Shown here: in pieces, positions 26,886-63,876 of the stretch | Layout of the letters: each line of letters begins with the position of its first letter | Numbering within the stretch: position 1 is the first letter of the stretch | Source: an uncultured Bdellovibrionales bacterium | Lineage (GTDB): Bacteria; Myxococcota; XYA12-FULL-58-9; JALHOP01 | DNA length: 64,000 nt | Assembly: GCA_964484195.1 (NCBI GenBank) | Contig: CAZAER010000001.1 | Coordinates: 285,510-349,509 of the forward strand | Direction: 5' to 3' | Notes under the pieces: model-generated | Databases searched by the model: none | What the model saw: the letters and a program-made list of their open reading frames with translations, nothing else | What the model was told of the DNA's origin: nothing | Position numbers and translations under genes: made by a program

Positions 26886-26976
26886 GGCGGGCCTTGGTGG
26901 GATTTGCCCAGAACGGAAACGTCGGGCGGTCGAAGTTATCGCCGCCCGGCTCCAAGTGTTTCGCGAACGACGATCG

Positions 26977-45359: not shown

Positions 45360-45377
45360 GGCACGGGCCTCACTCGC

Positions 45378-46088
45378 TTAGTTCTCTGCCGAAACCTCAT
45401 CGGGCCGTTGTCGAAAGCGATAGCCTACACCACGGAGCGTTTCCACGTAGTGTCCGGCGATGCCCAGCTTTTCGCGCAGGCGTTTCACGTGGGTGTCGAC
45501 GGTGCGGGTCGTGACCTCCGCGTCGATTCCCCAAACGTCGGAGAGCAGAGTGTCGCGCGTCTGCACCCGACCCTTGCGGGCGAGCAGGGTGGTGAGCAGC
45601 CGGAACTCGAGGGCGGTGAGTCGGATCTCTTCTTCGCCGACCCAGACGCGGTGACCCGGCGAATCGACCCGCAGGTCGCCGAACCGTAGCTCGGTGTCCT
45701 TGGGCTCGTCGGCGGCGACACGGCGGAGGATGGCGCGCACCCGCAGCATCAGCTCACGGACGCTGAAAGGTTTGGCGACGAAGTCATCGGCCCCGACCTC
45801 GAAGCCGACGACGCGATCGATCTCGTCGTTCTTGGCGGTCAGCATGAGCACCGGGATGCCCTTGGTGCGCTCGTCGGCGCGCAGGCGGCGGCAGACTTCG
45901 GTGCCGGGCACGTCAGGGAGCATGAGGTCCAAGACCACGAGGTCGGGGAGGGGCTCTTGCCCCGCGAGGCTCAGTGCGCTCGTGCCGTTCAGCGCCGTGC
46001 GGGTCTGAAACCCCTCGCGCTGGAAGTTGTATTCGAGCGTATTGGCGAGGTCCTGCTCGTCTTCGACCACCAAAATCAGTGCCGACAT
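45378..46088 (-). CDS. OmpR/PhoB-family response regulator
   Basis: Receiver domain (LVVLDLMLPD) plus a winged-helix domain (RVDTHVKRLREKL, GVGYRF). ATG at 46088 has a GGGAGG RBS. The ORF-track extension is rejected. Confidence 0.85.
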   Translation of the reverse strand: MSALILVVEDEQDLANTLEYNFQREGFQTRTALNGTSALSLAGQEPLPDLVVLDLMLPDVPGTEVCRRLRADERTKGIPVLMLTAKNDEIDRVVGFEVGADDFVAKPFSVRELMLRVRAILRRVAADEPKDTELRFGDLRVDSPGHRVWVGEEEIRLTALEFRLLTTLLARKGRVQTRDTLLSDVWGIDAEVTTRTVDTHVKRLREKLGIAGHYVETLRGVGYRFRQRPDEVSAEN

Positions 46089-46258
46089 GCTTGCCTCCCG
46101 GAAGGCGCTTTCAGGGCTTTCCTGCGCCCCAATTGCCCGTTCGCGGTGACGCCTTTGTGACAGCGGAACAACGTCTTGGGACGCTGCGATCGTCTCTGTC
46201 ACATTGACCAGAACGTCTTATAGAGCCTTCGTACCGTTCCGGAAAGGCTCGAAGACCT

Positions 46259-46621: not shown

Positions 46622-47902
<1,281 letters not shown>

Positions 47903-49213
47903 CTACTCCCGATCCGCGATGCCGGCGCGCTCGAAGAGCGCATCGACGTGCTTGAAATAATGGTCGAGCGAGAAGGCGCGATCGACGACGTTCGCGGGGA
48001 TGGCCTTGACCGCGTCTTCGTCCGCCAAAGCGGTGCGGAAGTCTTTGGCCTGGTTTTCCCAGACGCGCATGGCGGCGCGCTGCACCGAGGCGTAGGCGAC
48101 CTGACGCTCGAGACCCGCCTCGAGCAGCACCCCGAGCACGCTTTGGCTGAACACCAAGCCGCGCGTCGAATCGAGATTCTGCTTCATGCGCTCGGGGTAA
48201 ACGCGCAACCCGTTCACCAGGTCGAGCATCTTCAAGGTCATGTAGTGCGCGAGATGGAACGCATCGGGGAAGGCCACGCGCTCGACCGAGGAGTGACTGA
48301 TGTCGCGCTCGTGCCACAAGGCGACGTCTTCGGCGCCCGCTACCATGTAGCCGCGCAGGAGGCGCGCCATACCCGCGATGCGCTCGCTGGTGATCGGATT
48401 GCGCTTGTGCGGCATCGCGGACGAGCCGGTCTGGCCCGCGGCGAACGGCTCTTCGGCTTCTCGGACCTCGGTGCGCTGCATGGCGCGGATGTCGACGGCG
48501 AAACGCTCGAGGCCGCTGCCGTAGACCGCGAGGATCGAGAAGATGAAGGCGTGGCGGTCGCGCGGCACCACCTGGGTCGCCACCGGCTCGGCGAAGAGGT
48601 CGAGGTTCTCGAGGATGCTGCGCTCGAGCGCAGGGTCGCTCTGCGAAAAGCTGCCGACCGCGCCCGACATCTTGCCGTGCGCAGCCTCCATGCGCGCGAC
48701 GCGCAGGCGCTCGAGATGGCGTTGCACCTCACTGTACCAACCAGCGAGCCGCAGGCCGAAGGTGGTCGGCTCGGCGTGGACACCGTGGGTGCGGCCGACG
48801 CAGGGCGTGAGCTTGTGCTCACGGGCACGCCGCGCAATCGCGAGACCGAGCTCTTTCACCGTGTCGACGAGCACTTCGAGTGACTCGCTGATCGCCATCG
48901 CGAGCGCGGTGTCGACGACGTCGCTCGAGGTCAAGCCGCGATGCAGGTGCCGGCGGGCAGGCTCGCCGACAATCTCGCCGAGCGCCCGCACGAAGGCGAC
49001 CACGTCGTGGTTCGTCACCTTCTCGAGCTCGCGCACGCGGTCGGCCGAGGGTGCCTTCGCCTTGTCGCGGATCGCCTGCATCTCGTCGGCGGGGACTTGG
49101 CCTCGGGCGGCCCAGGCTTCGCTGGCTGCGACCTCGACGCGGGTCCAGCGTTCCATTTGCGCGGCTTCACCCCAGATGCGACGCATGGCTTCGGTTTCGT
49201 AGCGACTGATCAT
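47903..49213 (-). CDS. purB: Adenylosuccinate lyase
   Basis: Fumarate lyase signature SSAMPHKRNP. The N-terminus matches PurB. Confidence 0.95.
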   Translation of the reverse strand: MISRYETEAMRRIWGEAAQMERWTRVEVAASEAWAARGQVPADEMQAIRDKAKAPSADRVRELEKVTNHDVVAFVRALGEIVGEPARRHLHRGLTSSDVVDTALAMAISESLEVLVDTVKELGLAIARRAREHKLTPCVGRTHGVHAEPTTFGLRLAGWYSEVQRHLERLRVARMEAAHGKMSGAVGSFSQSDPALERSILENLDLFAEPVATQVVPRDRHAFIFSILAVYGSGLERFAVDIRAMQRTEVREAEEPFAAGQTGSSAMPHKRNPITSERIAGMARLLRGYMVAGAEDVALWHERDISHSSVERVAFPDAFHLAHYMTLKMLDLVNGLRVYPERMKQNLDSTRGLVFSQSVLGVLLEAGLERQVAYASVQRAAMRVWENQAKDFRTALADEDAVKAIPANVVDRAFSLDHYFKHVDALFERAGIADRE

Positions 49214-50469
49214 GGCTCACCCTGGGCGATGTCGCGGCGGAAGTGCTTGCCGGCGAACTTCACCATGTCGACACCCTCGTAGGCGCGCGCCCGAGCTTCA
49301 CGCAGCGTCGCGGCGCTGGCGACGACCGCGGCGATTCGGCCCCCGTTGGTGACGAGCTTGTCTCCGTCGTGTTTGGTGCCGGCGTGATCGAGCCAGCGAT
49401 CCGGGGCGTCGAGGTTGCGATCGATGGTGATGGCGTCGCCCTTGCGCGGCTCCCCGGGGTAGCCCTCGGCGCTCACGACGATGGCGATGGTGGTGCGGCG
49501 ATCGACGACCAGCTTGAAGTCGGCAAGCTTGCCGGCCGCGGTCGCCTGGCAGAGTCGCGTCAGCTCACCCTTGCCGAGGCGCGGCAAGATGGCTTGCGCT
49601 TCGGGATCGCCGAGGCGCGCGTTGAACTCGAGCAGCTTGATCTCGCCGGTGGGGGCGATCATGACGCCCGCATAGAGAAAGCCGACGTAAGGCGTTTCGC
49701 GGCGCTTGAGCTCACGCACCACGGGCATGACGATCTCTTCGCGCACGTGCTGCTCACGCCGGCCGTCGATCACCGGGTTCGGGCTCACCGCGCCCATGCC
49801 GCCGGTATTCGGGCCGCGGTCGCTGTCGTTGATGCGCTTGTGGTCGCGCGCGTGCGGGAGCGCCACCAAGTGCTCGCCATCGCAGGCATAGAAGAGCGAG
49901 GCTTCGACGCCCGCGAGCCGCTCCTCGAGGACGACGGTGCGTCCAGCGTCGCCGAGGCTGCCGGCGAGATACTCGCGCGCGGCTTCGACGCAGCCTTCGC
50001 GCGTGTCAGGCAGGACGACGCCTTTGCCGGCGCAGAGTCCGTCCGCTTTGACGACCGGCAGGCCAGGCATGTCCTCCATCGCGGTCGCCAGCTCGTCGGC
50101 GCGCTTCACGATGCGGAAGGCGGGTGAATCGACTTCGGCGGCGTAGGCGATTTCGCGCATGAACGCCTTCGACCCTTCGAGCTGGGCGGCGGCGCGGCTC
50201 GGGCCGCAGCAGGGGATGTTCGCGCTCTTCAGGGCGTCGGCGAGGCCGGCGACCAGCGCCCCCTCTGGACCCGGCACGACCAGGTCGACTTTTTCCTCGC
50301 GGGCGAGAGTCACCAGGCTTTCGACGTCATCGACTCGGACGGGGATGCAGCGCGCGTGAGCGGCGATCCCTGGATTGCCCGGCGCGGCGATGAGCTCGGC
50401 GCCGTCGTTGGCGAGCGCTCTGCAGATGGCGTGCTCGCGCCCGCCTTGTCCGACGACCAGGATTTTCAC
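49210..50469 (-). CDS. purD: Phosphoribosylamine--glycine ligase
   Basis: MKILVVGQGGREHA and the ATP-grasp core. The stop overlaps the purB ATG (ATGA). Confidence 0.95.
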   Translation of the reverse strand: MKILVVGQGGREHAICRALANDGAELIAAPGNPGIAAHARCIPVRVDDVESLVTLAREEKVDLVVPGPEGALVAGLADALKSANIPCCGPSRAAAQLEGSKAFMREIAYAAEVDSPAFRIVKRADELATAMEDMPGLPVVKADGLCAGKGVVLPDTREGCVEAAREYLAGSLGDAGRTVVLEERLAGVEASLFYACDGEHLVALPHARDHKRINDSDRGPNTGGMGAVSPNPVIDGRREQHVREEIVMPVVRELKRRETPYVGFLYAGVMIAPTGEIKLLEFNARLGDPEAQAILPRLGKGELTRLCQATAAGKLADFKLVVDRRTTIAIVVSAEGYPGEPRKGDAITIDRNLDAPDRWLDHAGTKHDGDKLVTNGGRIAAVVASAATLREARARAYEGVDMVKFAGKHFRRDIAQGEP

Positions 50470-50517
50470 TGCGTCTTCTTAAGGCCAGGGCCCGTAAGGC
50501 ACAACTGACCTGGGCCG

Positions 50518-52143
50518 TTAATGTTTGAAGTGGCGCCGATTGGTGAAGACCATGGCGATCCCCGCGGCGTCACACGCCGCGATGGAGTCCGCGTCGCGCT
50601 TCGAGCCGCCCGGCTGGACGATCGCCACGATGCCCGCCTTCTGCGCGAGCTTCACGACGTCGTCGAATGGGAAAAACGCATCCGATCCGAGGAAGGCGCC
50701 CTTCGAGGCTTCGCCGGCCTTGCGCATCGCTTGCTCCATGGCGTCGACGCGGCTCATGAAGCCGGCGCCGGCCCCGAGCAAGCGGCGGCGCTTGGTGATG
50801 GAGACCGCGTTCGATTTCAGGAGCATCGCGGCACGCATGGCGAAGGCAAGCTCGTCCTGCCAGCCGGGATCGAGGGTGCGCTTGGTCACGGTTTTCCAGG
50901 TCGTCGGTAGGGCGAGGCCAGGGTCGGCAGTCTCCACCAGCATGCCGCCGCCGACGCGGTGCGCGTGCCAAGCAGGCTCCGGTGATCCGATGGGGACCTG
51001 GAAGAGGCGCAGGTCAGCCTTTTTCTCGAGCTCGGCGCGCGCGTCGGGCGCGAAGCCCGGTGCCACGATGCACTCGATGAAGAGCTTTGCGTCCTTGATA
51101 GCGGACACGGTCGCCATCTCGACGATGGTGTTGAAACCGATGATGCCGCCGAAGGCCGAGACCGGGTCGCCGGCCAACGCTTGCACGAAGGCCTCGACTT
51201 GGCTCGCTGCCTCGGCGAGGCCGCAGGGATTGGTGTGCTTGACGATGGCGCAACCCGTGCCCGCGAGCTGGAAGACGGCCCGGTAGGCCGCGTCCATGTC
51301 GAGATAGTTGTTGTAGGAGAGCTGCTTGCCGGACAGCACCGAGCCGTTGGCGACGCCGTTGCTCTCGCCGGTGGCGCGATAGAGGGCGCCGCCTTGGTGC
51401 GGGTTTTCGCCGTAGCGCAGGACTTCGACGCGGTCGAAGATGGCCAAGCGCTCGGGCAGTGGCGGCGGCGCATCGAGGTCGGGGACGCGCATCTCGCTGG
51501 TGACGAGCTTACTGTCGGCGACGTCTTTGGCGTACCACTCGGCGATGGCGAGGTCGTATTTCGCGATGACCTGGAAAGCTTTCGCGGCGAGCTCGCGACG
51601 CACGTCGGAAGGCACGAGGCCCGCCCGCGACACCAAGTCGACGACGCGGCTGTAGTCCGCGGGGTCCACCAAAACGGTCACGCCGCCGGCCTCGTTTTTG
51701 GCCGACGCGCGCACCAAGGTCGGGCCGCCGATGTCGACGTTCTCGACCATTTCGTGGCGCGGCGCGTTCCGCGCGAGCGCTTGCTCGAACGGGTAGAGGT
51801 TGCAGACGACCAGATCGATGGGCGGGTAAGCGTTGTCCTTGAGATCTTTTTCGTGCTCGGGGAGCCGGCGATCCGCGAGGATTCCGGCGTGGATCTTCGG
51901 GTGCAGCGTCTTGACGCGACCGTCGAGCACTTCTTTTGCGCCCGTGAAGTTCTCGATGCGCGTCACTTTCACGCCGGCATCTTCGATGGCCTTGGCGGTA
52001 CCGCCCGAGGCCAAGATTTCGACCTCGTGTGCGGCGAGGCCTTTGGCGAGGTCGATGAGGCCAGTCTTGTCGAACACCGACAAGAGCGCGCGGCGAACCT
52101 TGCCGGGCGCAGGTGAGAGGTTGGCGGTGGCGTCGACTCGCAT
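50518..52143 (-). CDS. purH: Bifunctional AICAR transformylase / IMP cyclohydrolase
   Basis: VRRALLSVFDKTG (MGS-like domain) plus the AICARFT domain. The true start may lie a few codons inside the listed ORF. Confidence 0.9.
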   Translation of the reverse strand: MRVDATANLSPAPGKVRRALLSVFDKTGLIDLAKGLAAHEVEILASGGTAKAIEDAGVKVTRIENFTGAKEVLDGRVKTLHPKIHAGILADRRLPEHEKDLKDNAYPPIDLVVCNLYPFEQALARNAPRHEMVENVDIGGPTLVRASAKNEAGGVTVLVDPADYSRVVDLVSRAGLVPSDVRRELAAKAFQVIAKYDLAIAEWYAKDVADSKLVTSEMRVPDLDAPPPLPERLAIFDRVEVLRYGENPHQGGALYRATGESNGVANGSVLSGKQLSYNNYLDMDAAYRAVFQLAGTGCAIVKHTNPCGLAEAASQVEAFVQALAGDPVSAFGGIIGFNTIVEMATVSAIKDAKLFIECIVAPGFAPDARAELEKKADLRLFQVPIGSPEPAWHAHRVGGGMLVETADPGLALPTTWKTVTKRTLDPGWQDELAFAMRAAMLLKSNAVSITKRRRLLGAGAGFMSRVDAMEQAMRKAGEASKGAFLGSDAFFPFDDVVKLAQKAGIVAIVQPGGSKRDADSIAACDAAGIAMVFTNRRHFKH

Positions 52144-52746
52144 CTAGCTCTCCAAGGGTTTGTTCAATCGCTCGACGAACAGGCGCACGGCGCGCGGGTA
52201 GATGACGTGCTCGACTTCGTTGAGAATGCGCTGTGCTAGGCCTTCGGGACCTTCGTCGCCGCGGACCTCGAGCGAGCCTTGCAGGATGACCGGACCGGTG
52301 TCGACGCCGCCGTCGACGAAGTGCACGGTCGCACCGACGACGCTGCGCCCGGCTTGCCATTGGCGCTCGGCGCCATGGAGGCCGGGGAACTCGGGTAGGA
52401 GCGACGGGTGGATGTTTAGGATCCGTCCGCTGAAGCGGGCGAGGAACGAGGGGCTCAAGATGCGCAGGTAGCCCGCGAGCAGCAGGTGCTCGGCGCCGAG
52501 CGTCGCCAGCAAGGCGAGCAAGGCTTCTTCGTGGGCCTCGCGTTTCATGCCCTTGCTGACCAGCACATGGCCGGGAACACCATACTCAGCGGCGCGCTCG
52601 AGGACGCCTGCGCCTTCGACGTTGGTCACGACGCCGACCACTTGGCCGCCGACGTATCCACGCTTGAATGCGCGCATCAGCGCGTCGGCGTTCGAGCCGC
52701 GGCCCGACGCCAGGATGGCAAAGCGCGGGTGGCTAGGTGCGGGCAT
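52144..52746 (-). CDS. purN: Phosphoribosylglycinamide formyltransferase
   Basis: FAILASGRGSN and the formyltransferase motifs NIHPSLLP and HFVDGGVDTGPVI. ATG at 52746 overlaps the purM 3' end by 14 nt. The ORF-track extension is rejected. Confidence 0.85.
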   Translation of the reverse strand: MPAPSHPRFAILASGRGSNADALMRAFKRGYVGGQVVGVVTNVEGAGVLERAAEYGVPGHVLVSKGMKREAHEEALLALLATLGAEHLLLAGYLRILSPSFLARFSGRILNIHPSLLPEFPGLHGAERQWQAGRSVVGATVHFVDGGVDTGPVILQGSLEVRGDEGPEGLAQRILNEVEHVIYPRAVRLFVERLNKPLES

Positions 52747-53899
52747 ACCCGAGCTCGACTCCGTGAGGCCCAGCTTGGATGGCCCCGACCTCGAGCCAAC
52801 CTTGATGCCCGGCCAGGGCCTTGGGGGTGGTGAGCGCCTGGCGCAGCTTCGCCGCGTCTTCGGGGCCAACGACGATGCAATAGCCGAGCCCCATGTTGAA
52901 GGTGCTCGCCATCTCGGTCCACGCGACGTTTCCGGTCTTCTGCACCAGGCCGAAGATTGCGGGCATGTGGTAACGCTCGGGGTCGACGACGACGCGCACT
53001 TCGTTTTTCGTGAGCTTGCCCAAGCGCCCGAGGAGGCCGCCGCCGGTGACGTGGGCGCTCGCCTTCACTTTGATTTGCTGCATGACCTCGAGCACCGGCC
53101 GCACGTAGAGGCGCGTCGGGGTCAAGAGCTCGGCGCCCAGTGTCCGCTCGAGCGCACCGATATGATCGGTGAGGCGCAGCCCGCCCATGTCGATCAGCGC
53201 TTTGCGCGCGAGCGACAGGCCGTTCGAGTGGATGCCGCTGGAGGTGAGCGCGAAGATGACGTCGCCCGCTTTCACGGAGTTTGCGTCCGGCAGCCGCGCT
53301 TCGTCGGCGATACCCACGGCGAAGCCCGCGAGATCGAAATCACCGGGTGGGTAGAGCCCGGGCATCTCCGCGGTCTCACCACCCAAGAGCACGCAACCGA
53401 CCTCGCGACAGGCATTGGCGATGCCACGCACGATGGGGGTCAGCTCAGACGCCTCGAGCTTGCCGGTCGCGATGTAGTCGAGAAAGAAAATGGGCCGCGA
53501 GCCGGAGGGCAAGAGATCGTTGACGTTCATGCCCACGAGGTCTTGGCCGAGACCCTCGTAGCTCTTCATGTCGCGCGCGACGATGAGCTTGGTACCCACG
53601 CCGTCGCAGGCGGCGGAAATGAGCGGTCGCGAGATGCCGCTGAAGTCGGGACGGAAGAGCCCCGCGTAGGCCGTGGTGTGGGGAACGACGCCGCTGTTGT
53701 GCGTCGACTTGGCGAGCGAGGCGATACCTTCGACGAAAGCATCGGCAGCGGCGATGTCGACGCCGGCGCGCTTGTACGACAGGCTGCCGCCAGCCTCGTC
53801 ACGCTCTTTGGCGCGGCTGCGGTCGTGCGGCTCTTCGGAGCCCTCGACGTGGTGCATGCCGCTCGCTTCGGGCGACATACCTTCGGGGCGCTGAGTCAT
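52733..53899 (-). CDS. purM: Phosphoribosylformylglycinamidine cyclo-ligase (AIR synthetase)
   Basis: SLSYKRAGVDI...DGVGTKL, with PurM N- and C-domains. ATG at 53899 overlaps the purF stop (ATGA). There is a 30-40 aa N-terminal extension relative to E. coli PurM. Confidence 0.9.
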   Translation of the reverse strand: MTQRPEGMSPEASGMHHVEGSEEPHDRSRAKERDEAGGSLSYKRAGVDIAAADAFVEGIASLAKSTHNSGVVPHTTAYAGLFRPDFSGISRPLISAACDGVGTKLIVARDMKSYEGLGQDLVGMNVNDLLPSGSRPIFFLDYIATGKLEASELTPIVRGIANACREVGCVLLGGETAEMPGLYPPGDFDLAGFAVGIADEARLPDANSVKAGDVIFALTSSGIHSNGLSLARKALIDMGGLRLTDHIGALERTLGAELLTPTRLYVRPVLEVMQQIKVKASAHVTGGGLLGRLGKLTKNEVRVVVDPERYHMPAIFGLVQKTGNVAWTEMASTFNMGLGYCIVVGPEDAAKLRQALTTPKALAGHQGWLEVGAIQAGPHGVELGYART

Positions 53900-55332
53900 A
53901 CGGGGTACGTCCCGGTCATGCAGCCGAAGCAGAACTCGGCGCGCTTGGTGGCGTTCTTCAAGCCATCGAGCGACAGATAGCGCAGGTTGTCGGCGCCGAC
54001 GGCTTTGCGCACGCCGTCGACGTCGGCGTGGCGGTTGATGACCAGCTCTTCGCGGTCGGGCGTGTCGATGCCGAGGTAGCAGGGCCACGAGAGTGGCGGC
54101 GAGGCGATGCGCATCCACACTTCGGCGGCGCCGGCGTCACGCACCATCTGGACGATGAGCCGCGAGGTGTTGCCGCGCACGATGGAGTCATCCATCAAGA
54201 CGACACGCTTGCCGCGCACCGCGTCTTTGATGACGGACAGCTTGAGCTTGATGCTGTGCGAGCGCGAGTCTTGGTCGGGCAAGATGAAGGTACGGCCGAC
54301 GTAGTGGCTGCGGATGATGGCTTGTTCGAGCGGAATGCCGCTCTTGCGTGCGTAGCCGATGGCGGCGGGGAAGCCAGAGTCGGGGATGGGGACGATGATG
54401 TCGGGCTTCACGGTGAGCCCGGCTGCTTGATCTTCGATGGCGAGCTGCTCGCCCATGCGCAGACGCGCCTGGTGAGCGTTCTGTCCGAAGACCTCGCTAT
54501 TGGGACGCGCGAAGTAAACCAGCTCGAAGACGCAGGGCGCCGGCGGCGCCTTCGGCAAGAGCTGCGTCGAGCGCACGCCTTCGTGCGAGATCTCGATGAG
54601 CTCACCCGGGGCGATCTCGCGCACGTATTTGGCGTCGACTGCTTCGAGGGCGCAGGTCTCGCTCGCGACCACCCAGCCGTCGCGGTGCTCGCCGAGCACC
54701 AGCGGGCGCACGCCGTAGACGTCGCGCAGCGCGTAGAGGCGGCCGTCGCACAACATGGTGAGCGAGTAAGCGCCCAACATCTTGGCGGCGGCGGAGCGCA
54801 GCGCGTCGGGGAAGGTAGCGGCCTTCGAGCGCGCCAGGAGATGGACCATCAGCTCGGTGTCCATCGAGGTGGAGAGCAGCGAGCCGCCTTCTTCGAGCTC
54901 GCGCGCCAGGGCGTCTTGATTTTTGAGGTTGCCGTTGTGCGCTACAGCGAACTGGCCGTAGGGCGTGTGGGCGGTGAACGGCTGGATGTTCTCGGCGCGG
55001 TCCATGGTGACCGTCGAGTAACGGACGTGGCCGATGGCGCGGTCGCCCGGCAGCTCTTTGGTCTTGTGGACCGGCAGGGCTTCGACCACCAGGCCGCGGC
55101 CCTTCAGGTGGTGCATCTGGCCGCTGGTCTTGCCCGAGCCGTCGGTCGCTTTCTGCGCGCCGACCGCTTGCTGCGAGAAGGTGCAGATGCCGGCGGCTTC
55201 TTGGCCGCGATGCTGCAGCGCGAAGAGAGCACGGTGTACCAGCTCGGCGGCCGCGCCACCGCGACGCCAGACCGCGACGACGCCGCAGTCTTCACCGGCT
55301 TTGCGGAATGGAACGTCGACTGCGTCGATCAC
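53896..55332 (-). CDS. purF: Amidophosphoribosyltransferase (Bacillus-type with N-terminal propeptide and C-terminal Cys cluster)
   Basis: The propeptide precedes the nucleophile (EDCGVVAV). PRTase motif VVLMDDSIVRGNT. C-terminal CFGCMTG. Confidence 0.95.
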   Translation of the reverse strand: MIDAVDVPFRKAGEDCGVVAVWRRGGAAAELVHRALFALQHRGQEAAGICTFSQQAVGAQKATDGSGKTSGQMHHLKGRGLVVEALPVHKTKELPGDRAIGHVRYSTVTMDRAENIQPFTAHTPYGQFAVAHNGNLKNQDALARELEEGGSLLSTSMDTELMVHLLARSKAATFPDALRSAAAKMLGAYSLTMLCDGRLYALRDVYGVRPLVLGEHRDGWVVASETCALEAVDAKYVREIAPGELIEISHEGVRSTQLLPKAPPAPCVFELVYFARPNSEVFGQNAHQARLRMGEQLAIEDQAAGLTVKPDIIVPIPDSGFPAAIGYARKSGIPLEQAIIRSHYVGRTFILPDQDSRSHSIKLKLSVIKDAVRGKRVVLMDDSIVRGNTSRLIVQMVRDAGAAEVWMRIASPPLSWPCYLGIDTPDREELVINRHADVDGVRKAVGADNLRYLSLDGLKNATKRAEFCFGCMTGTYPV

Positions 55333-57524
55333 GCGGCACCCCGTTCGGCCCCGCCCGAGAAGGCCTTACGTAACGCATCGACGCTAACATCTAGGACCGA
55401 CGATTCGCCGGTCTTGATGGTGAGCCGGCTGCCGCCGCTCGATCCCAGGCGCATGGCAGCGACCCCGCAGGTCTTGGCCATGGCGAGGAAAGCATCGGCG
55501 AAGCGCGGCGCGACACCCACCCAGGCGACGCCCGAGGTCTCGCCGAAGAAGTGCCAGTCGAGTCGGCCCTCGAAGACCCAGCTCAGGGTCGCGCCCATGC
55601 GGCCGCGGGCGCAGGCCTTGCCGAGCGCCGTGAGCAGACCACCGGCGCCGGCGTCTTTGGCGAAGCTCACCATGCCGCGACGGATGGCATCGACCAGGAG
55701 ATTGGCGAGGCGCTTGTCGGCCGCGAGGTCGACGCTCACCTGGCTGCCGGCGAGCTGGCCGCTGGCGATGCGACCATAGGCGGAGGTCATCGGTGTGGCG
55801 GAAGGCGTGCCACAGAGAATCAACGCCAGGTCGCCTGCGAGCTCGCCGCGCGGCACGCGGGAGACGTCATCGACTACGCCGATGGCGCCGACCATCGGCG
55901 TTGGGGGGATCGCACCGTCCGCTGTAGCGTTGTAGAGCGAGACATTGCCACCGGTGACCGGGATCTCGAGGGCCTTCAAGCCGTCGGCCAAGCCGCGAAT
56001 GGTCTCGGTGAGCTTCTTGTTCTCGACCGGATCCGACGGCGGTCCATGGTTGATGCCATCGGTAATGGCCATGATCGGCGCGCCGACGCAGGCGAGGTTG
56101 CGCGTCGCTTCGCCGAGGGCCGCGAGCGACCCCTTGTAGGGATCGACGGCGCAGAGCTCGCCGCGGCCGGTGATGGTGAGCGCGAAGCCGCGGGCCGAGC
56201 CCGGGAGCTTCATCACCGCCGCCTCGGCCTCGCCGGGACCACGCACCGTGCGGTTACCGACGGTGTGGTCATAGTGATCGTAGAGGTTCGTGAGATCGGC
56301 GATGCCGGGCTCGGAGAGCATCCGCAATAGCGGCTTGCCGAGATCTTTGGGCGGCGAGAACTCGGCGTACTCCGAGATGGCGGGGAGCGCGGGTGCCTCC
56401 GGCCAGTTGAGCTTGGGCGCGCCGTCGGCGACCAGCATCGCCGGCAGATCGACCACCACGTCGCCGTTCCACAGGGCACGGAACTGACCGCCGTCGACGA
56501 CCTTGCCGACGACTGCGGCGTGCACGCCGTAGTGCTCGAAGTGCGCGACCGCCTTGGCGGCCTTCGCGGCCTCGACCACGAAAAGGAAACGTTCTTGCGA
56601 CTCCGAGACCAGGACTTCGAAGGGTTCCATGCCGGCTTCGCGGAGGGGCACGGCGTCGAGATCGAGATCGATGCCAACGCCGCCGAGCGCCGCCATCTCG
56701 GATGCCGCGCAGGTGAGACCGCAGGCACCCATGTCTTGGCAGGCGACCATGCCGTGCTCGGGACCGAAGGAGAGGCAGGCCTCCATCAGCTTCTTGCCGG
56801 TGAATGGGTCACCGACTTGCACGTGGCTGCGCTGTTCCGTGGTGTTCTCGGCGAGCTCTTCGGAGGCGAAAGCGGCGCCGAGGATGCCGTCACGGCCGGT
56901 GGACGCTCCAGCGTACACTACGGCGTTGCCGATACCGGAAGCCTTGGCGGTGCGCATTCCGTCATGGCGGACGAGACCGGCGGCCAGCGCGTTGACCAGG
57001 GGATTGCCCTCGTAACGCGGGTCGTAGACGGTCTTGCCTCCGACGTTCGGTAGGCCGATGGCGTTACCGTAACCGGCGATGCCGGCGACCACGCCTTGGG
57101 CGATGTGGCGGCTCTTCGCGTCGTAGGGGGGACCGAAACACAGCGAGTCCATCACCAGGCAGGGCCGGGCGCCCTGGGCGATGACGTCGCGCAGGATGCC
57201 ACCGACGCCGGTCGCGGCGCCCTGATAGGGCTCGACGGCGCTGGGATGGTTGTGGGACTCGATCTTGAACGCGACGGCCCAGCCTTCGCCGACATCGACG
57301 GCGCCGGCGTGCGAGCCGGGACCCGCGAGCAGGTAAGGAGCTTCGCGCGGCATCATGCCGAGGCGGGAGCGCGAGCTCTTGTACGAGCAGTGCTCGCTCC
57401 ACATGCCGGCGAAGACGGCGAGCTCGGGCAGGCGCGGCTCACGGCCAAGTTGTTTCTCGATGTGATCGAGCTCGTGGGGCTTCAAGCCCATGGCGACGCC
57501 CTGGTTGTGCAGCTCGGGCTTCAT
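55329..57524 (-). CDS. purL: Phosphoribosylformylglycinamidine synthase subunit PurL (small PurL, 731 aa)
   Basis: MWSEHCSYKSS, the AIRS-like repeats and the correct length for the three-subunit FGAM synthase. Confidence 0.95.
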   Translation of the reverse strand: MKPELHNQGVAMGLKPHELDHIEKQLGREPRLPELAVFAGMWSEHCSYKSSRSRLGMMPREAPYLLAGPGSHAGAVDVGEGWAVAFKIESHNHPSAVEPYQGAATGVGGILRDVIAQGARPCLVMDSLCFGPPYDAKSRHIAQGVVAGIAGYGNAIGLPNVGGKTVYDPRYEGNPLVNALAAGLVRHDGMRTAKASGIGNAVVYAGASTGRDGILGAAFASEELAENTTEQRSHVQVGDPFTGKKLMEACLSFGPEHGMVACQDMGACGLTCAASEMAALGGVGIDLDLDAVPLREAGMEPFEVLVSESQERFLFVVEAAKAAKAVAHFEHYGVHAAVVGKVVDGGQFRALWNGDVVVDLPAMLVADGAPKLNWPEAPALPAISEYAEFSPPKDLGKPLLRMLSEPGIADLTNLYDHYDHTVGNRTVRGPGEAEAAVMKLPGSARGFALTITGRGELCAVDPYKGSLAALGEATRNLACVGAPIMAITDGINHGPPSDPVENKKLTETIRGLADGLKALEIPVTGGNVSLYNATADGAIPPTPMVGAIGVVDDVSRVPRGELAGDLALILCGTPSATPMTSAYGRIASGQLAGSQVSVDLAADKRLANLLVDAIRRGMVSFAKDAGAGGLLTALGKACARGRMGATLSWVFEGRLDWHFFGETSGVAWVGVAPRFADAFLAMAKTCGVAAMRLGSSGGSRLTIKTGESSVLDVSVDALRKAFSGGAERGAA

Positions 57525-58201
57525 GCGAGTCCTTGCGAGATGGCGTCACGGGCGCCTTCGAAGATGAGCGCGCCGTCGTTGCTGCCGATGTGCGGGTCGG
57601 TGGCGCGGTCGGGGTGCGGCATGACGCCGAAGACGCGGCCGCTGCTGTCGAGCATGGCGGCGGCGTTGCCGATCGATCCGTTCATGTTGCGGTCGTAGAC
57701 GAATGGCACGCTGTCCGCGATAGCGTCCCAGCCGTCGGGATGATAGTAGTTGCCTTCGCCGTGGGCCATCGGCCAGCGCAGCTTGGTGCCGCGCGGCACG
57801 CGCAAGAGCCAGGGGGACTTCTGCTTGGTCTCGCGGGCCTCGACGGTGACCCACTTGTGCTTGAAGCCCGGCGGGTTGTTGTAGGTGAGGGCGCCTGGCA
57901 AGAGGCCGGCCTCGACCAAGATCTGGAAGCCGTTGCAAACACCGATGACCAGACCACCCTTGGCCACGAACTCGGGCAGGGCGCGCATCGCCGGGGCGTA
58001 ACGGGCGAGCATGCCGGCGCGCCAGTAATCACCGTAGGAGAAGCCACCGGGCACACCGACGACCTTGGTGTCCGCTGGAGCGGTTTCGCGCGAGTCGACA
58101 TACACCGGAGCGAAGCCGGCGCGCTCGAATGATTCGGCGATATCGCGGTCGCCGTTGGACCCTGGGAAGACGATGACGGCCGCTTTCGGGCGAGCGTTCA
58201 C
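57521..58201 (-). CDS. purQ: Phosphoribosylformylglycinamidine synthase subunit PurQ (glutaminase)
   Basis: AVIVFPGSNGDRD and GVCNGFQ (catalytic Cys). The GTG start overlaps the purS stop (GTGA). Confidence 0.9.
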   Translation of the reverse strand: MNARPKAAVIVFPGSNGDRDIAESFERAGFAPVYVDSRETAPADTKVVGVPGGFSYGDYWRAGMLARYAPAMRALPEFVAKGGLVIGVCNGFQILVEAGLLPGALTYNNPPGFKHKWVTVEARETKQKSPWLLRVPRGTKLRWPMAHGEGNYYHPDGWDAIADSVPFVYDRNMNGSIGNAAAMLDSSGRVFGVMPHPDRATDPHIGSNDGALIFEGARDAISQGLA

Positions 58202-58452
58202 GTCCCCTCCACCCGAGCCGTGTAGGTCTCGAGGCTCGGGTTCACGAGCAGGCGCTTGCAGAGGTCATCGACGGTGCGCTTGGCCTCGTCGGGGCTGCGG
58301 GCCTCGACGTCCATCGACAGGTAGCGGCCCACCTGGTGGACCTTCACGCCCTTGACCTCGAGGCCTTTGACGGCGCCGTCGACGGCTTCGCCCTGCGGGT
58401 CACGCACGCCGGACTTGGGTTTGACGATGAGCTCGATCTTGAACGTCGCCAT
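58198..58452 (-). CDS. purS: Phosphoribosylformylglycinamidine synthase subunit PurS
   Basis: An 84 aa protein with MATFKIELIVKPKSGVRDPQGEAV, which is PurS-like. Confidence 0.85.
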   Translation of the reverse strand: MATFKIELIVKPKSGVRDPQGEAVDGAVKGLEVKGVKVHQVGRYLSMDVEARSPDEAKRTVDDLCKRLLVNPSLETYTARVEGT

Positions 58453-58454
58453 CG

Positions 58455-59213
58455 TTACGAAGCCTTCATGATGCGGGTGAGCCGCGCGTGCACTTCGCGG
58501 TAGCCTTCGAGCAAGTCGCCCTTGCCCTGGCGGAAGCGATCTTTGTCGAGCATCCCGGCGCCATCCATGTCGCGGAAGCGGCAGGTGTCGGGGCTGATCT
58601 CGTCGGCGAGGATGACCTTGCCGTCGGGGGTCTTGCCGAACTCGAACTTCATGTCGAAGAGGTCGATGCGCGCCTTGGTGAAGAGACCGCGGAGCTCGCC
58701 GGCGATCTGCAGCGCAAGCTTACGCAGCTCGGAGACCTCGGCCGGGGTCGCCAGCTTCAAGAGGCGAATGTGATCGTCGTTGATGATCGGGTCACCGAGA
58801 TCGTCACGCTTGTAATAGAGCTCGACGATCGGCGGGTCGCAGACGGTGCCGTCCGGAAGCCCGGTGCGTTTCTGCAACGATCCCGCGACCTGGAAGCGAA
58901 CCACGACCTCGAGCGGGAACATGGTGGCCCGCTTGACGATCAGGGTGCGCTCGTCGACCCGACGTAGATGCTGGGTCGGGACGCCCTTGCCCTCGAGGTA
59001 GGTGAACAGCATCTCGCTGATGGTGCTGTTCAGGGCGCCTTTGCCCGGAAAAACCTCGTGTTTTTGGCCATTGAACGCTGTCGCGTCGTCTTTGAAGACG
59101 ACCTCGACCTCGCGCTCAGACAGCGGGCGCATCCGCTTCGCCTTGCCTTCGTAAACCTGCACCGGCGCTCCTCTCTCGGCTCGTGGGGAACCACTCAAGA
59201 GGTGCGGGACCAT
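58455..59213 (-). CDS. purC: Phosphoribosylaminoimidazole-succinocarboxamide synthase
   Basis: VYEGKAKR and the SAICAR synthetase core. The true start may be the internal GTG (VQVYEGKAKR), 17 codons in. Confidence 0.9.
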   Translation of the reverse strand: MVPHLLSGSPRAERGAPVQVYEGKAKRMRPLSEREVEVVFKDDATAFNGQKHEVFPGKGALNSTISEMLFTYLEGKGVPTQHLRRVDERTLIVKRATMFPLEVVVRFQVAGSLQKRTGLPDGTVCDPPIVELYYKRDDLGDPIINDDHIRLLKLATPAEVSELRKLALQIAGELRGLFTKARIDLFDMKFEFGKTPDGKVILADEISPDTCRFRDMDGAGMLDKDRFRQGKGDLLEGYREVHARLTRIMKAS

Positions 59214-59318
59214 GCAGCGACACGGCGCAGAGTGTCAAGGCGGCGCGCCCATGTAGCGGCAACTTTGGATGCCCAATTCCGATATTTCCGCACATCAACC
59301 CTGAACCTGGGGATCGCC

Positions 59319-59981
59319 TTGCAGATCGTTCGCCTCCGCACTCATGCCAACCTCGACACCGTGACCTCCGCCCTGCGCTCGCTCAACAGCGAGAAGAACG
59401 TCAACACGCGGTTTGCGGTGGTGAAGGCAACGCTGGGCGAAGGCGAAGAGCGCGCCTTTCTGGTCGAGGCTCATCACCAGACGGACAAGGACGCCCATCT
59501 GCTGGCCAGCGCCGGCAAGGACAAACAAATCATCCTGTCGACCAAGGACTCCGTCGGCAATGACGTTCGTGTCACTGGTAAGGTCTATTCGCACACTCAG
59601 GCCGGCAACAGCACGGTAGCGCGCTGGCTGGGTCTCGGCGCCGCTACTGGTGTCGTCTGCGGCGGCATGATCGGCTTGGTCACGGCGGTCACGGGCACGC
59701 TGCCGATCCATGAAGCCGCTGGTCCGATCTTCAGCACCGTGTTCGGCCTCGCCGCGTTCCTCGGGGCCGTCGCCGCATTCCGAGAGATCATCATCAAGTC
59801 GGAGGGCGCCGATTGGGCCCGCGTCACCGTGGACAGCCTCAGCGAAGGCAAGCCGGTTCCCGTCGAGCTCCACGGCATCGAGCAAGCGCCGGCCACGGTC
59901 GCCGCCTTGCCTGCGCCCACCGAGTCCCCGTTCCTCATTCCTCCGGTCACCCTGCCGGTGCGCGAGAAGGTGACCGCTTGA
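59319..59981 (+). CDS. Membrane protein, tandem paralog 1, with conserved C-terminal tail LPVREKVTA
   Basis: TTG at 59319 or GTG at 59361 (no ATG is available). Soluble N-domain, two TM helices, then a Pro-rich tail ending PVTLPVREKVTA. The stop overlaps the next gene start (TTGA). Confidence 0.5.
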   Translation: MQIVRLRTHANLDTVTSALRSLNSEKNVNTRFAVVKATLGEGEERAFLVEAHHQTDKDAHLLASAGKDKQIILSTKDSVGNDVRVTGKVYSHTQAGNSTVARWLGLGAATGVVCGGMIGLVTAVTGTLPIHEAAGPIFSTVFGLAAFLGAVAAFREIIIKSEGADWARVTVDSLSEGKPVPVELHGIEQAPATVAALPAPTESPFLIPPVTLPVREKVTA

Positions 59982-60613
59982 AGATCGTGCCCTTGGCCGC
60001 GAAAGCGGATCTTGGAACCCTTGGCTCGGCGCTGCGTCATACCAAGCTGATCAGCCAGCCCGACCAGCACTTCGCTTTCGTGAAGTCCTCGGGAGAAGGC
60101 GGCGAGACCACCTACCTGGTCTCGGCAGCGAGCGGCGACAAAGACGTCGATATGCTCAAGCTCGCGGTCGCCCGCGATCAACGCATTACCTTCGCGGTCA
60201 CAGACGGCGTCGAGCCGCGCACGGTCACCGGAACCATCGCGCGCTACGTCGAGCCCGGTCGTGGGTGGGACCGGCAGATTTGGGCCGCGGCTCTCCCCAT
60301 CGCGGTGGGCGCGACCGCCGCAGCCGCGCTTTACGGGGCTCTCGAGTATCGCGACTTCGGCATGTTGCTCGCCGGCATCGTCGGCTGGGCCGTCTCTTTT
60401 CCTCTCGCTTTTCAGGCAATCGAAGCACAGCCGCTGGGTCACGACTGGGCGCGTGAGCTCGTCGAGAGCCACTATGACGGTTCGCCCGCCGAGGCGGTGG
60501 TCCAGAGACTCGACGTGACGCCCGCGCCGCTGGTTGCGCTCCCGCCTCCAACGGAAGCGCCCATGGCCATTCCCGCCGTGAGCTTGCCGGTACGGGAGAA
60601 GGTCACGGCGTAG
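59978..60613 (+). CDS. Membrane protein, tandem paralog 2, with the same C-terminal tail
   Basis: TTG at 59978 or GTG at 59987. The N-domain aligns with paralog 1 (LGTLGSALRH...FAFVK...RTVTGTI against LDTVTSALRS...FAVVK...VRVTGKV). Two TM helices. The tail ends AVSLPVREKVTA. Confidence 0.5.
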   Translation: MKIVPLAAKADLGTLGSALRHTKLISQPDQHFAFVKSSGEGGETTYLVSAASGDKDVDMLKLAVARDQRITFAVTDGVEPRTVTGTIARYVEPGRGWDRQIWAAALPIAVGATAAAALYGALEYRDFGMLLAGIVGWAVSFPLAFQAIEAQPLGHDWARELVESHYDGSPAEAVVQRLDVTPAPLVALPPPTEAPMAIPAVSLPVREKVTA

Positions 60614-60619
60614 CGTTCT

Positions 60620-60973
60620 TCAGGCGCAACCGCCTGTGCCGCAGCGGGCCACCCGCGAGCGGTTCTTCGCGATCTCCTCGAGACGCGCTCCTAGAGACCG
60701 GACGCTCTGCTGCTTCGGTCCGGAGAGGCCATCGGCACAGAGGTCCATCATCGCGGAAAAGCCTCGTAGCTCGGAGGCCTCGAGCCGGTCGGTCTGCGAG
60801 CCGTGGTGGGTGATCATGCCATCGGTGTCGATGCGGACGGCGGGCGACGAGCCGGGTCTTGGACGGCGCACGATGACGGCGTCGGGAGTCGATTCGACCT
60901 CCAGATCGGTGGGCTTGGTCGTCACCTGAATGCGGCAAGCCGCCTGCACCGTCGGGAATTGGACGTCGCTCAT
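60620..60973 (-). CDS. Hypothetical small protein (117 aa)
   Basis: ATG at 60973 with a GGAG RBS 6 nt upstream. Ends ...RCGTGGCA. The longer ORF-track N-terminus overlaps the SNF2 gene and is rejected. Confidence 0.35.
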   Translation of the reverse strand: MSDVQFPTVQAACRIQVTTKPTDLEVESTPDAVIVRRPRPGSSPAVRIDTDGMITHHGSQTDRLEASELRGFSAMMDLCADGLSGPKQQSVRSLGARLEEIAKNRSRVARCGTGGCA

Positions 60974-61062: not shown

Positions 61063-63876
61063 CTAGCCGATGAGCGCCAAGACCTCGTCGGGGGTGATCC
61101 GCTTGCCGATGGCGCCGCCCTCGCTCGAGAGCAGGTCTTTCGCCAGGGCCTCCTTGCTCTTGGCGAGCTCGACCACGCGCTCTTCGATCGAGCGCGCACA
61201 GACCAGCTTGTAGACCGTGACCTGTTGCTGCTGGCCAAGACGGTGGGTGCGGTCGGTCGCTTGTTGCTCGACCGCCGGGTTCCACCAGGGATCGTAGTGC
61301 ATGACGGTGTCGGCGCGCGTCAGCGTAAGGCCAGTGCCGCCGGCGCGCAGCGACACGATGATCACCGGCGGGCCAGCCGGATCTTGGAAGCCCGCGACCA
61401 CCTTGTCGCGGTTACGGGTGCCGCCGTGGAGCCAGAGTGGGTCGACGCCGAGGCGCTTGACCACGTCGATGAGCCGTTTCTGCATCTCGACGAACTGGCT
61501 GAAGACGACGATGGTGCGCGACGAGTCCAGCGCCTCGCGCATGAGCTCCTCGAAGAGCTCGAGCTTCGCGGATGGCGGCACCTTGGCGCCGGGCGGCGCC
61601 GGCAAGAGTGACGGGTCGCAGCAGATCTGCCGCAGCCGCGTGAGCGCCGCGAGAATGTCGAGATGCGCCCGCTCGATGCCGACCTGCTCGATCTTCTTCT
61701 GCACGCTCTCGCGCAGCTCGCCGGCCACGTGATCGTAAAGCGCCCGCTGCACTGGGTTCATGTCGCAACGCACCAGCGACTCGACCTTCGGTGGCAGCTC
61801 TTTGGCGACTTCGCTCTTCAACCGGCGCAGGACGAGCGGTTGCACCCGCGTCCGCAATAGCGACAGAGCATCGCCCTCGGCTCGCGAGATCGGGCGGGCG
61901 TAGCGCTTGCGGAAGGCGCGCACGCTGCCGAGGAACCCGGGGGCCAAGAAGTCGAAGATGGCCCAGAGGTCGTCGGGGCGATTCTCGACTGGAGTACCGG
62001 TCAAGGCGAGGCGCCGCTCGCTCTTGAGCCGACGGATGGCGCGCGCGTTCTGGCTGACCGCGTTCTTCGCCGACTGGGCTTCGTCCAAGATCACGTAGCG
62101 GAACGAGTGATTGGCGAGCAGCTCGGCATCACGGCGGAGGACGCCGTAGCTCGTCACCACGAGGTCGCACGTGGCGACATCGACGGCCTGGCGGGCTTTG
62201 GGCGGGCCGTGCCAAAGGACGGTCTTCAGAGTCGGCGCGAAACGCGCGGCTTCGTCGCGCCAAACGGTGACGACCGAGGTCGGCGCCACGACGAGCGACG
62301 GCTTCACGCCTTCGACCTCGCGCACCTTCAAGAGAAGGGCGAGCGCCTGCATGGTCTTTCCGAGACCCATGTCGTCGGCGAGGATGCCGGTCAGACGGTG
62401 GCGGTGCAGCATGGCGAGCCAGTCGAGGCCGCGTGCTTGGTAATCGCGCAAGACGCCATCGAGGCTTGCCGGCGGCTCGATATGCGGCGGCGCATGTGAC
62501 GAGGAGAGCTCGTCGAGCCACGACTGGGTCGCCTCGTCGGCGATGGCGAGCGAGGCCTCGTCGCCGATGGCGCGCAGGATACCGACGCACAGCGGGCTCA
62601 CGAGGGCGCGGTCGGCGGTGGCACCGAGATCTTCGAGCAAGCGCAGCGAGCGGCGGAAACGTGCCGAAGGGGCGACGAACGATCCGTCGGCGAGCTGCAC
62701 GTACTTCTTGCCGGAGGCGAGCCAGCCGAGCAGCTCTTTCATACTGACCAAGGCCTGCACCGTTTGGTCGTCGGTCTGTGCCGGCTGTGCGTCATCGCGG
62801 ACCTGCTCGATGCCGAGCCGCACGTCGATGAGGCCGCGGTCCTCGAGGAGCTGCAGGCGGGCGCGGACGTTCAGATCGCGCCGGAACACCGGCATCGTAC
62901 CGCCGCGCACCACGTCCCAGCCCGGCGGGAAGGCGTCACCCATCGGGTCCAAGACGCGCAGCGCTTGCTCGCCGCCGGCGATGAACACCAGCTCGTTCTT
63001 GTCGAAGCGAAAACCGAGCTCGCGGAGGAGCTTGCGCGCGCCTTCTTCGACCACGAGGTCGCGCTCGAGGAGCCCTTGAGCCCCGGGCTGCGTCGGCACC
63101 ACGTGGACGTTGACGGGGCGCTGGCCCTCGATGAGCACGAGCTCACCACCGTAGTCGGCTTCGATGCGCACGCGGATGACCGGCTCGGCGTCGGTCGTGG
63201 CGGAGACGATGGTGGCAATGAAGCGCCGAGGCGGCTCGCGGCGAACCGCCAGGCGAACCAGATCTTCCGCCGGGACGCCCACTTTGGTGAGCTCGCGCAC
63301 CAAGTTGTCGCGCGCCTGCGGCGATAGCTCGAAGTCGAGGACGATGGTCGGCTCACGCGCCCAGCGGGTGAGCTCCCACGGCGAAGGGGAAGCGATGGGG
63401 TAGGCGAGGTTGCCGCGCAGGAAAAACGCCTGGCTGCCCGCGAGAAGTCTGCCATCGCGGACATCGAGAATGGTGCCGTCAGGCTGCGCGAGGCCGAGCG
63501 CCGCTTGCAGCTGCGCGCCGTTGGTGGTCTCGACGCGGACGCGAACCGTGAGCTCGAAATCTGCGATCTTGAGGTTGTTGCCGTCGACGCGCGTCTGGCG
63601 CTGCACCAGCAGCGGCAGGACGCGGGCCAGCGAGGCGTCCGCGAGATGGCCGAAGGTCTGGCCAGAGCGCAGCTCGCGCACGATGGCCTGATCGAGGGCC
63701 TGGAGCTGCGGCTGCATGCGCTTGGTATCGGAGTCGGAGAGGCTTTCCCCGCCATCGATGGTCTGCGGCATGACGATGCCGCCCGACCCGCGACCCAGGA
63801 CAGTGAGGCGATATGCGAGGCGAATGGGGGTGTCGTCGCGGCGCCCTTCGCCCTGCGCCTGGCTGCTCGAAGACAT
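61063..63876 (-). CDS. SNF2-family DNA/RNA helicase with roughly 440 aa uncharacterised N-terminal region
   Basis: SNF2_N motifs LADDMGLGKT (motif I) and ILDEAQSAKN (DEAQ box). Helicase C domain (GGTGLTLTRADTVMHYDPWWNPAVEQQATDRTHRLGQ). The start is taken at the ATG at 63876 (MSSSSQAQ...). Confidence 0.85.
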   Translation of the reverse strand: MSSSSQAQGEGRRDDTPIRLAYRLTVLGRGSGGIVMPQTIDGGESLSDSDTKRMQPQLQALDQAIVRELRSGQTFGHLADASLARVLPLLVQRQTRVDGNNLKIADFELTVRVRVETTNGAQLQAALGLAQPDGTILDVRDGRLLAGSQAFFLRGNLAYPIASPSPWELTRWAREPTIVLDFELSPQARDNLVRELTKVGVPAEDLVRLAVRREPPRRFIATIVSATTDAEPVIRVRIEADYGGELVLIEGQRPVNVHVVPTQPGAQGLLERDLVVEEGARKLLRELGFRFDKNELVFIAGGEQALRVLDPMGDAFPPGWDVVRGGTMPVFRRDLNVRARLQLLEDRGLIDVRLGIEQVRDDAQPAQTDDQTVQALVSMKELLGWLASGKKYVQLADGSFVAPSARFRRSLRLLEDLGATADRALVSPLCVGILRAIGDEASLAIADEATQSWLDELSSSHAPPHIEPPASLDGVLRDYQARGLDWLAMLHRHRLTGILADDMGLGKTMQALALLLKVREVEGVKPSLVVAPTSVVTVWRDEAARFAPTLKTVLWHGPPKARQAVDVATCDLVVTSYGVLRRDAELLANHSFRYVILDEAQSAKNAVSQNARAIRRLKSERRLALTGTPVENRPDDLWAIFDFLAPGFLGSVRAFRKRYARPISRAEGDALSLLRTRVQPLVLRRLKSEVAKELPPKVESLVRCDMNPVQRALYDHVAGELRESVQKKIEQVGIERAHLDILAALTRLRQICCDPSLLPAPPGAKVPPSAKLELFEELMREALDSSRTIVVFSQFVEMQKRLIDVVKRLGVDPLWLHGGTRNRDKVVAGFQDPAGPPVIIVSLRAGGTGLTLTRADTVMHYDPWWNPAVEQQATDRTHRLGQQQQVTVYKLVCARSIEERVVELAKSKEALAKDLLSSEGGAIGKRITPDEVLALIG

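Follow-up and report, generated by a model that had tools for sequence, protein, structure and literature searches.

At the locus described here, two consecutive genes of an uncultured bacterium assigned to the Myxococcota, designated A and B, encode predicted membrane proteins that end in the same nonapeptide, LPVREKVTA. The genes lie on contig CAZAER010000001.1, within a stretch of 64 kb that is referred to below as the window. Gene A (59319-59981, plus strand) starts with TTG, ends with TGA and encodes a protein of 220 residues, while gene B (59978-60613, plus strand) starts with TTG, ends with TAG and encodes a protein of 211 residues, the guanine plus cytosine (GC) content of B by codon position being 0.70/0.50/0.79. 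In the junction, gcTTGAag, the start codon of B and the stop codon of A overlap. Both the tandem arrangement with a TTGA overlap and the lack of an ATG start in either gene had been pointed out in a sequence-only reading of the window, and the coordinates, the junction and the two TTG codons confirm them. The pair is located between purC (SAICAR synthase; 58455-59162, minus strand), which is the first gene of a minus-strand purine biosynthesis cluster, and a convergent SNF2-family helicase gene (61063-63876, minus strand; the upper coordinate was deduced from the 937-residue product called in relatives), which bounds the locus in all relatives. The same reading had placed both genes immediately upstream of purC. 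The plus-strand pair does lie on the 5' side of purC, but purC is on the minus strand, and because the pair is transcribed divergently from it, no operon is shared.

A and B align end to end with 34% identity (BLASTP, E 8e-19). The identities are unevenly spread, numbering 11, 5, 9, 4, 4, 3, 0, 5, 8, 5 and 14 in successive blocks of 20 aligned columns. The two proteins end in SLPVREKVTA or TLPVREKVTA, the last nine residues being all identical, and 19 of the last 25 residues are shared, for which the binomial probability at a background identity of 32% is 8e-6 (uncorrected for the post hoc choice of these 25 residues). In A the nonapeptide (59952-59978, plus strand) closes a proline-rich C-terminal arm, PATVAALPAPTESPFLIPPVT, which together with the tail extends over 59889-59978; in B it is encoded at 60584-60610 (plus strand), where six of the nine codons differ synonymously from those of A. 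Comparison of the codons along the last 25 residues showed that the same codon is used at only four of the 19 identical positions and that third-position identity is 28% in the tail vs 41-44% elsewhere. By the Nei-Gojobori method, the proportions of nonsynonymous (pN) and synonymous (pS) differences between A and B are 0.19 and 0.83 (the latter saturated) in the tail, and 0.48 and 0.59 in the remainder. Since the residues are identical while the codons differ, the tail is selected as a peptide, i.e. kept by purifying selection acting on the protein. The sequence-only reading had described two tails of identical sequence differing at synonymous positions and had proposed conservation at the protein rather than the DNA level; the codon comparison substantiates the former more strongly than had been stated, and the codons together with the pN and pS values substantiate the latter.

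The exact tail is specific to the clade of A and B. Among the orthologues of A the last residues vary (TA, NA, GV), LPVR[ED]KV being invariant. No further REKVTA or LPVREKV was found in the six frames of the window, and no other open reading frame (ORF) with the tail was found, either there or across about 170 kb of loci that carry relatives.

Hydropathy analysis predicts two hydrophobic helices in each protein, and an AlphaFold model of A (12-sequence alignment; mean predicted local distance difference test score, pLDDT, 68) agrees with it; along with the BLASTP alignment, both support the earlier description of A and B as alignable paralogues with two transmembrane helices (TM1 and TM2) each. 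In A, all on the plus strand, an N-terminal alpha+beta domain (residues 1-94, 59319-59600; element order b-a-b-b-a-b-b, pLDDT 70-82) is followed by TM1 (approximately residues 98-126, 59610-59696; likewise in the model), TM2 (approximately residues 136-160, 59724-59798; the model helix extends over 136-174), a DWAR motif (residues 165-168, 59811-59822) and a beta-hairpin (residues 175-189, 59841-59885; pLDDT 71-81). The arm and the tail are unstructured in the model (pLDDT <50, residues 205-220). B, on the same strand, has the layout of A, with TM1 at about 60266-60343, TM2 at about 60356-60412, the DWAR motif, the proline-rich arm and the tail. The helices consist of 30-50% Gly+Ala and are rich in small-xxx-small motifs, a composition typical of helix packing in oligomers. 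No signal peptide was detected, the N-terminus being a polar alpha+beta domain devoid of a hydrophobic leader. The Lys+Arg residues of 12 family members number 27 in the N-side flank, 4 in the loop and 19 in the C-side flank, and because of this distribution (positive-inside rule) the N-terminal domain and the tail are both predicted to be cytoplasmic. Such a placing of both ends fits the packing of the C-terminal hairpin with the N-terminal domain, which the beta-hairpin past TM2 probably joins. All matches from fold searches were either non-significant or to generic helical hairpins.

A and B are ancient paralogues within a very small protein family that had not been described before. Only nine clusters were retrieved when 1.84 billion representative proteins were searched with a profile; in an index of 5.8 billion proteins A had four relatives and B matched only itself; a profile scan of genome contigs returned only the already known metagenome-assembled genome (MAG), and a metagenome scan with a 6-sequence alignment only a known contig. 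Every member that could be traced to an organism comes from uncultured Myxococcota. No Pfam match recurred across the 12 members at E values up to 10 (best single-member E 0.04-0.1), the best NCBIfam match of A was SLATT_2 (E 0.11, 12 bits vs a cut-off of 40), and PADLOC, PHROGs and a sequence-profile search of PDB gave no family match.

The members (211-247 residues) have one common layout: an alpha+beta domain of about 95 residues, two Gly/Ala-rich hydrophobic helices joined by a short, nearly charge-free loop, a D-W-A motif just past the second helix, a strand-rich segment, a proline-rich arm of the form [AS]LPxPxExP..IPP and a variable C-terminal end of about ten residues, among which a basic residue and a valine are usually present. 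Conservation is highest at columns L19, G87, D165, A167, L197 and P200, followed by A33, A51, L61, L62, P198 and P208. Because L197, P198, P200 and P208 are among these 12 columns, the arm is one of the features that define the family. The tail shared by A and B is the clade-specific end of this family-wide proline-rich arm and not a stand-alone tag. In a neighbour-joining tree built on all columns, B groups with the A clade and P0011 with P0006, each with 81% bootstrap support, and both groupings vanish once the columns from A residue 190 onward are removed, which is consistent with tails matched within a pair. P0006 and P0011 are themselves a tandem pair (2 nt apart, locus L008), ending in VKQTVRV and VKQPVAVGR. 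Beyond the window, these data hint weakly at co-variation of tails within a genome.

The pair did not arise by a recent duplication at this locus. Orthologues of A (P0002, 78% identical; P0003, 69%; P0004, 64%) occupy the same slot, from purC to the SNF2 gene, and the ratio of nonsynonymous to synonymous divergence (dN/dS) between A and its orthologues is about 0.16-0.37. Locus L017, a contig of 1.7 kb with the most divergent A orthologue, carries a B orthologue next to it, joined by the same TTGA overlap (ggcgtTTGAagatc). Over the 130 residues of this B orthologue that precede the contig end (L017 1345-1734), identity to B is 74.6%, with dN 0.157, dS 0.718 and a dN/dS of about 0.22, while A and its L017 orthologue are 64.8% identical over the same stretch. 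At synonymous sites, A has diverged further from B than from any A orthologue; the duplication therefore predates the A clade. Two further loci, L003 (with P0002) and L001 (with P0003, from a Myxococcota MAG), keep A without B and without the small neighbouring ORF C described below. The A/B pair is ancestral, B having been lost once or twice in relatives. A lineage-specific duplication, which the sequence-only reading had held out as the contrary outcome, is refuted by the pair and its TTGA overlap in L017 and by the independent tandem pair in L008. That B is a decaying duplicate was likewise rejected, by its dN/dS of 0.22 against the orthologue, B being under purifying selection. In L003 a 121-bp spacer (4365-4485) separates the A orthologue from the SNF2 gene; no remnant of B is detectable in it, and it holds a perfect inverted repeat, CATAACCCGC...GCGGGTTATG, that could be a terminator or an element of the repetitive extragenic palindrome (REP) type.

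The junction of the two genes is conserved along with the pair. In L001, L003 and L017 the A orthologue likewise starts with TTG, and so does the B orthologue in L017; counted over the clade, TTG is found in four of four A orthologues and in both B genes, other family members starting with GTG (3) or ATG (4). The conservation of so rare a start codon suggests selection for weak translation initiation in the A/B clade. The tail codons of A that specify REKV (cgc gag aag gtg) form a Shine-Dalgarno-like sequence, GAGAAGGTG, 6-7 nt before the TTG of B, and likewise in L017.

Members of the family are found in four orthologous contexts, the first being the slot between purC and the SNF2 gene, which is occupied by the A clade with or without B. 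In the second, P0010 (L013/L014), P0008 (L011) and the tandem pair P0006 and P0011 (L008) follow homologues of epsV and epsU directly and in the same orientation, 70-110 bp past these genes and inside an exopolysaccharide cluster of the Wzx/Wzy type. In NCBIfam the membrane glycosyltransferase of family 2 (GT2) scores 450 bits to EpsU and the co-polymerase 254 bits to EpsV, both under the equivalog cut-offs; the EpsU-like GT2 bears a QRKRW (QxxRW) motif. In Myxococcus, motility by type IV pili and development both require the EpsV and EpsU genes. The family evolves much faster than its neighbours, P0008 and P0010 being 41% identical while the adjoining EpsU-like GT2 and EpsV-like proteins are 85% and 86% identical, respectively. 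The P0010 contigs share sequencing runs with contigs that carry A, and P0010 may be a third paralogue of the window organism; the shared runs are suggestive only and tetranucleotide similarity does not discriminate. In the third context, the neighbours of P0007 and P0009 are genes for a small protein rich in charged residues, for a lipoprotein-like product and for a Ser/Thr kinase. The first of these flanking genes encodes a highly charged protein of 88-101 residues, 74% identical between loci (listed jointly as L009 1700-1966 and L012 185-490), and the second a protein of 76-77 residues with a lipoprotein-like N-terminus (..FAGCLG..; listed jointly as L010 2780-3013 and L012 1284-1514), past which the kinase gene follows. 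The fourth context is that of P0012, encoded in the MAG that also carries P0003; here the family gene is flanked by rpoA and rplQ and has the opposite orientation. At L007 8001-8642 (MAG GCA_022842935.1, contig JALHOP010000004.1), P0012 interrupts the normally contiguous string of ribosomal protein genes and rpoA, and with a GC content by codon position of 0.72/0.56/0.78 it resembles coding sequence.

We tentatively propose, at slightly less than an even chance, that A and B are subunits of a single hetero-oligomer in the inner membrane, coupled in their translation, and that their tails dock to a common site. The TTGA overlap and the Shine-Dalgarno-like sequence within the tail codons of A would couple the translation of B to that of A, and the two proteins, made together, may assemble through their small-residue-rich helices. 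Each subunit would form a two-helix hairpin in the inner membrane, with the alpha+beta domain and the flexible proline-rich arm facing the cytoplasm. The tail is identical in the two proteins while the rest is about 30% identical and the synonymous sites are saturated; hence we infer that it is a short linear docking motif for one site, the terminal motif of the arm engaging either a partner common to both proteins, in the cytoplasm or the membrane, or a conserved groove of the N-terminal domain of the family itself. The sequence-only reading had offered a partner-binding peptide as one meaning of the tail, and this is still the most economical one. As to the partner, the leading guess, made by analogy, is the envelope polysaccharide machinery, because epsV and epsU are the only recurrent neighbours of other family members; A and B could then be small accessory or regulatory subunits resembling PgaD.

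Several observations weigh against this proposal. The structural model is of medium confidence only, as the alignments comprise 5 and 12 sequences. L001 and L003 keep A without B, so a heteromer with B is not obligatory. The unlinked paralogues P0003 and P0012 of one MAG (bin.157) have unrelated tails. The pair is not beside any glycosyltransferase in the window, and its purC and SNF2 neighbours give no functional hint. The three eps loci are mutually orthologous and thus amount to about one independent association; moreover, the slot taken by the family is the junction of two eps sub-clusters, which is variable in Myxococcus and holds unrelated genes in Myxococcus xanthus (PMC7484181). A more far-reaching version, in which the family constitutes a new, Myxococcota-specific class of heteromeric membrane adaptors whose co-evolving C-terminal docking peptides recruit or gate an EpsV/EpsU component, acting like PgaD but with no sequence relationship to it, and with the tail as a lineage-specific address for the subunits of one complex, is improbable on the present evidence.

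Of the other explanations of the tail, the one that survives best is that it is an intramolecular or inter-subunit structural element, which folds onto the N-terminal domain of the same or the neighbouring subunit and engages no external partner. This is compatible with the predicted location of the N-terminal domain and the C-terminal segment on the same side of the membrane, with the pairing, in the model, of the hairpin past TM2 with confident strands, with the family-wide conservation of the ALPxP arm, and with the lack of a conserved third gene alongside the family across its contexts. We regard it as rather unlikely nevertheless: the tails are the same but the N-terminal domains match at only about 30% of positions, which would limit a receiving surface to the few shared residues, and the tail is undocked and of low confidence in the model.

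Alternatively, the tail could be a degron or stability determinant read by an AAA+ protease (ClpXP, FtsH or Lon), by which the subunits would be turned over together unless assembled. In C-terminal degrons of the ssrA/ClpX type, the last two to three residues are conserved, non-polar and essential for recognition. The tail does have a predicted cytoplasmic, unstructured C-terminus (pLDDT <50) that ends in small or non-polar residues, and the weak TTG starts conserved in both genes suggest tightly limited expression; however, the terminal residues, which carry the most weight in C-terminal degrons, are precisely the least conserved ones among the orthologues, and the core that is conserved, LPVR[ED]KV, carries charges and does not reach the end of the protein. 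A precedent exists in PgaD, which is degraded comparably when unassembled (PMC8461298). On balance, a degron is doubtful.

Myxococcota use lineage-specific C-terminal sorting signals, and a nonapeptide kept by selection at the extreme C-terminus of two proteins could in principle be a sorting or processing signal for a dedicated enzyme or protease of the sortase, exosortase or MYXO-CTERM type, as was suggested when the tail was first noticed as a possible sorting or recognition tag. The follow-up did not support that suggestion, and we consider it very improbable: the tail is predicted to be cytoplasmic on proteins that have no signal peptide, the stop codon comes two residues past the LPVREKV core, which leaves no room for a hydrophobic helix and basic cluster behind the motif, orthologues differ in the last two residues, no other ORF of the window or of the approximately 170 kb of loci carries the tail, and no gene for a sorting enzyme is nearby. 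Least credible is a by-product of events at the DNA level: although tandem repeats favour gene conversion and GAGAAGGTG, formed by the REKV codons of A, lies a few nucleotides ahead of the start of B, in L017 as well, 15 of the 19 identical residues have different codons (pS 0.83), B keeps the peptide with no gene downstream of it, the A orthologues of L001 and L003 keep it with no B to translate, and chance is excluded at about 1e-5. The codon comparison rules out gene conversion, chance or ribosome-binding-site overlap as the sole cause of the identity.

The divergent intergenic region between purC and gene A (59163-59318) is strongly conserved as DNA, its conservation among the window, L001, L003 and L017 exceeding that of the synonymous sites of the flanking genes. 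The four-way alignment consists of long invariant blocks between which a variable spacer of fixed length is found. On the plus strand, GCAAC (59259-59263) and CGATAT (59280-59285) are separated by 16 nt, and this element precedes by about 35 nt a ribosome-binding-like GGGGA (59309-59313) and the TTG of A. The GCAAC-16 nt-CGATAT arrangement resembles the AAC/CGT pattern of promoters recognised by extracytoplasmic function (ECF) sigma factors, and is a putative promoter. The blocks at 59170-59245 are probably the purC leader on the minus strand. Scans around the locus found no sigma-70 promoters and no intrinsic terminators, and Rfam gave no meaningful RNA element or riboswitch there. A mobile origin found no support in tblastn, A having no match in plasmids and B none in phages.

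ORF C (60620-60973, minus strand, 117 residues) is convergent with B, and gene calling on an independent contig recovered it too. Its product contains four cysteines and terminates in ..RCGTGGCA, and the GC content of the ORF by codon position (0.65/0.55/0.81) resembles that of coding sequence. Pfam, NCBIfam, PADLOC and PHROGs contain no match to it, and tblastn found no copy in the other loci; together with B, it is absent from L001 and L003. The minus-strand purine run that adjoins the A/B locus extends over 46625-59162 and comprises purA, purB and others through purL, purQ, purS and purC. Elsewhere in the window, a two-component system is encoded at 43572-46217 and an S9 prolyl oligopeptidase at 24549-27224.

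If the docking proposal is true, a short linear motif has been held identical in two paralogues beyond the span of the synonymous signal and marks a specific protein-protein contact in an uncharacterised membrane complex. The work also defines a protein family that has no Pfam or NCBIfam entry. The family is very rare and, among its traced members, restricted to uncultured Myxococcota, hence of narrow practical reach, and nothing indicates a new mechanism; overall we regard the pair as a modest curiosity.

Comparison with known membrane families (glycine-zipper two-helix proteins, holins, SLATT and others) gave no significant profile match. Sorting signals (LPXTG/sortase, PEP-CTERM/exosortase and MYXO-CTERM) resemble the tail in being short conserved C-terminal motifs on more than one protein per genome. 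They are tripartite (motif, hydrophobic helix and basic cluster) and occur on exported proteins with signal peptides, many per genome, whereas in A and B the tail itself terminates the protein, has a predicted cytoplasmic location and was seen on just the two paralogues. Another resemblance is to ligands of class II PDZ domains (hydrophobic-x-hydrophobic-COOH) and to proline-rich ligands of SH3 and WW domains: the unstructured proline-rich arm ends in V-x-A or V-x-V (VTA, VNA, VGV), and within the A/B clade conservation is confined to a short peptide. Other family members, however, end in GR, TR, SE or RR, and the free-carboxyl rule of PDZ ligands therefore fails across the family.

Paired genes of small multidrug resistance (SMR) proteins, such as EbrAB and YdgEF, encode proteins with four helices and opposite Lys/Arg biases that form an antiparallel dimer. 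The A/B pair is similar to them as a set of adjacent paralogous genes for small membrane proteins, which in SMR pairs often overlap and are read as obligate partners, and differs in that A and B have the same orientation of bias, large soluble parts and no Pfam match.

A further parallel is with PgaD and IcaD. PgaD is a small membrane partner with no known homologues, on which the GT2 synthase PgaC depends (PMC8461298). In contrast to PgaD and IcaD, A and B are not beside a GT2 gene but between purC and the SNF2 helicase gene; their family adds an N-terminal domain of 95 residues and the proline-rich arm, and no likeness in sequence or fold was found in PDB. EpsU belongs to a Wzx/Wzy-dependent pathway (PMC7484181), unlike the synthase-dependent system of PgaD. 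By prediction, A and B are like PgaD and IcaD in being small proteins of the inner membrane that form a hairpin of two helices and have their C-terminal part in the cytoplasm; another shared trait is the lack of detectable homology to other families. The further likeness of being encoded right after a membrane GT2 is true of their relatives P0006/P0011, P0008 and P0010, each of which follows an EpsU-like GT2.

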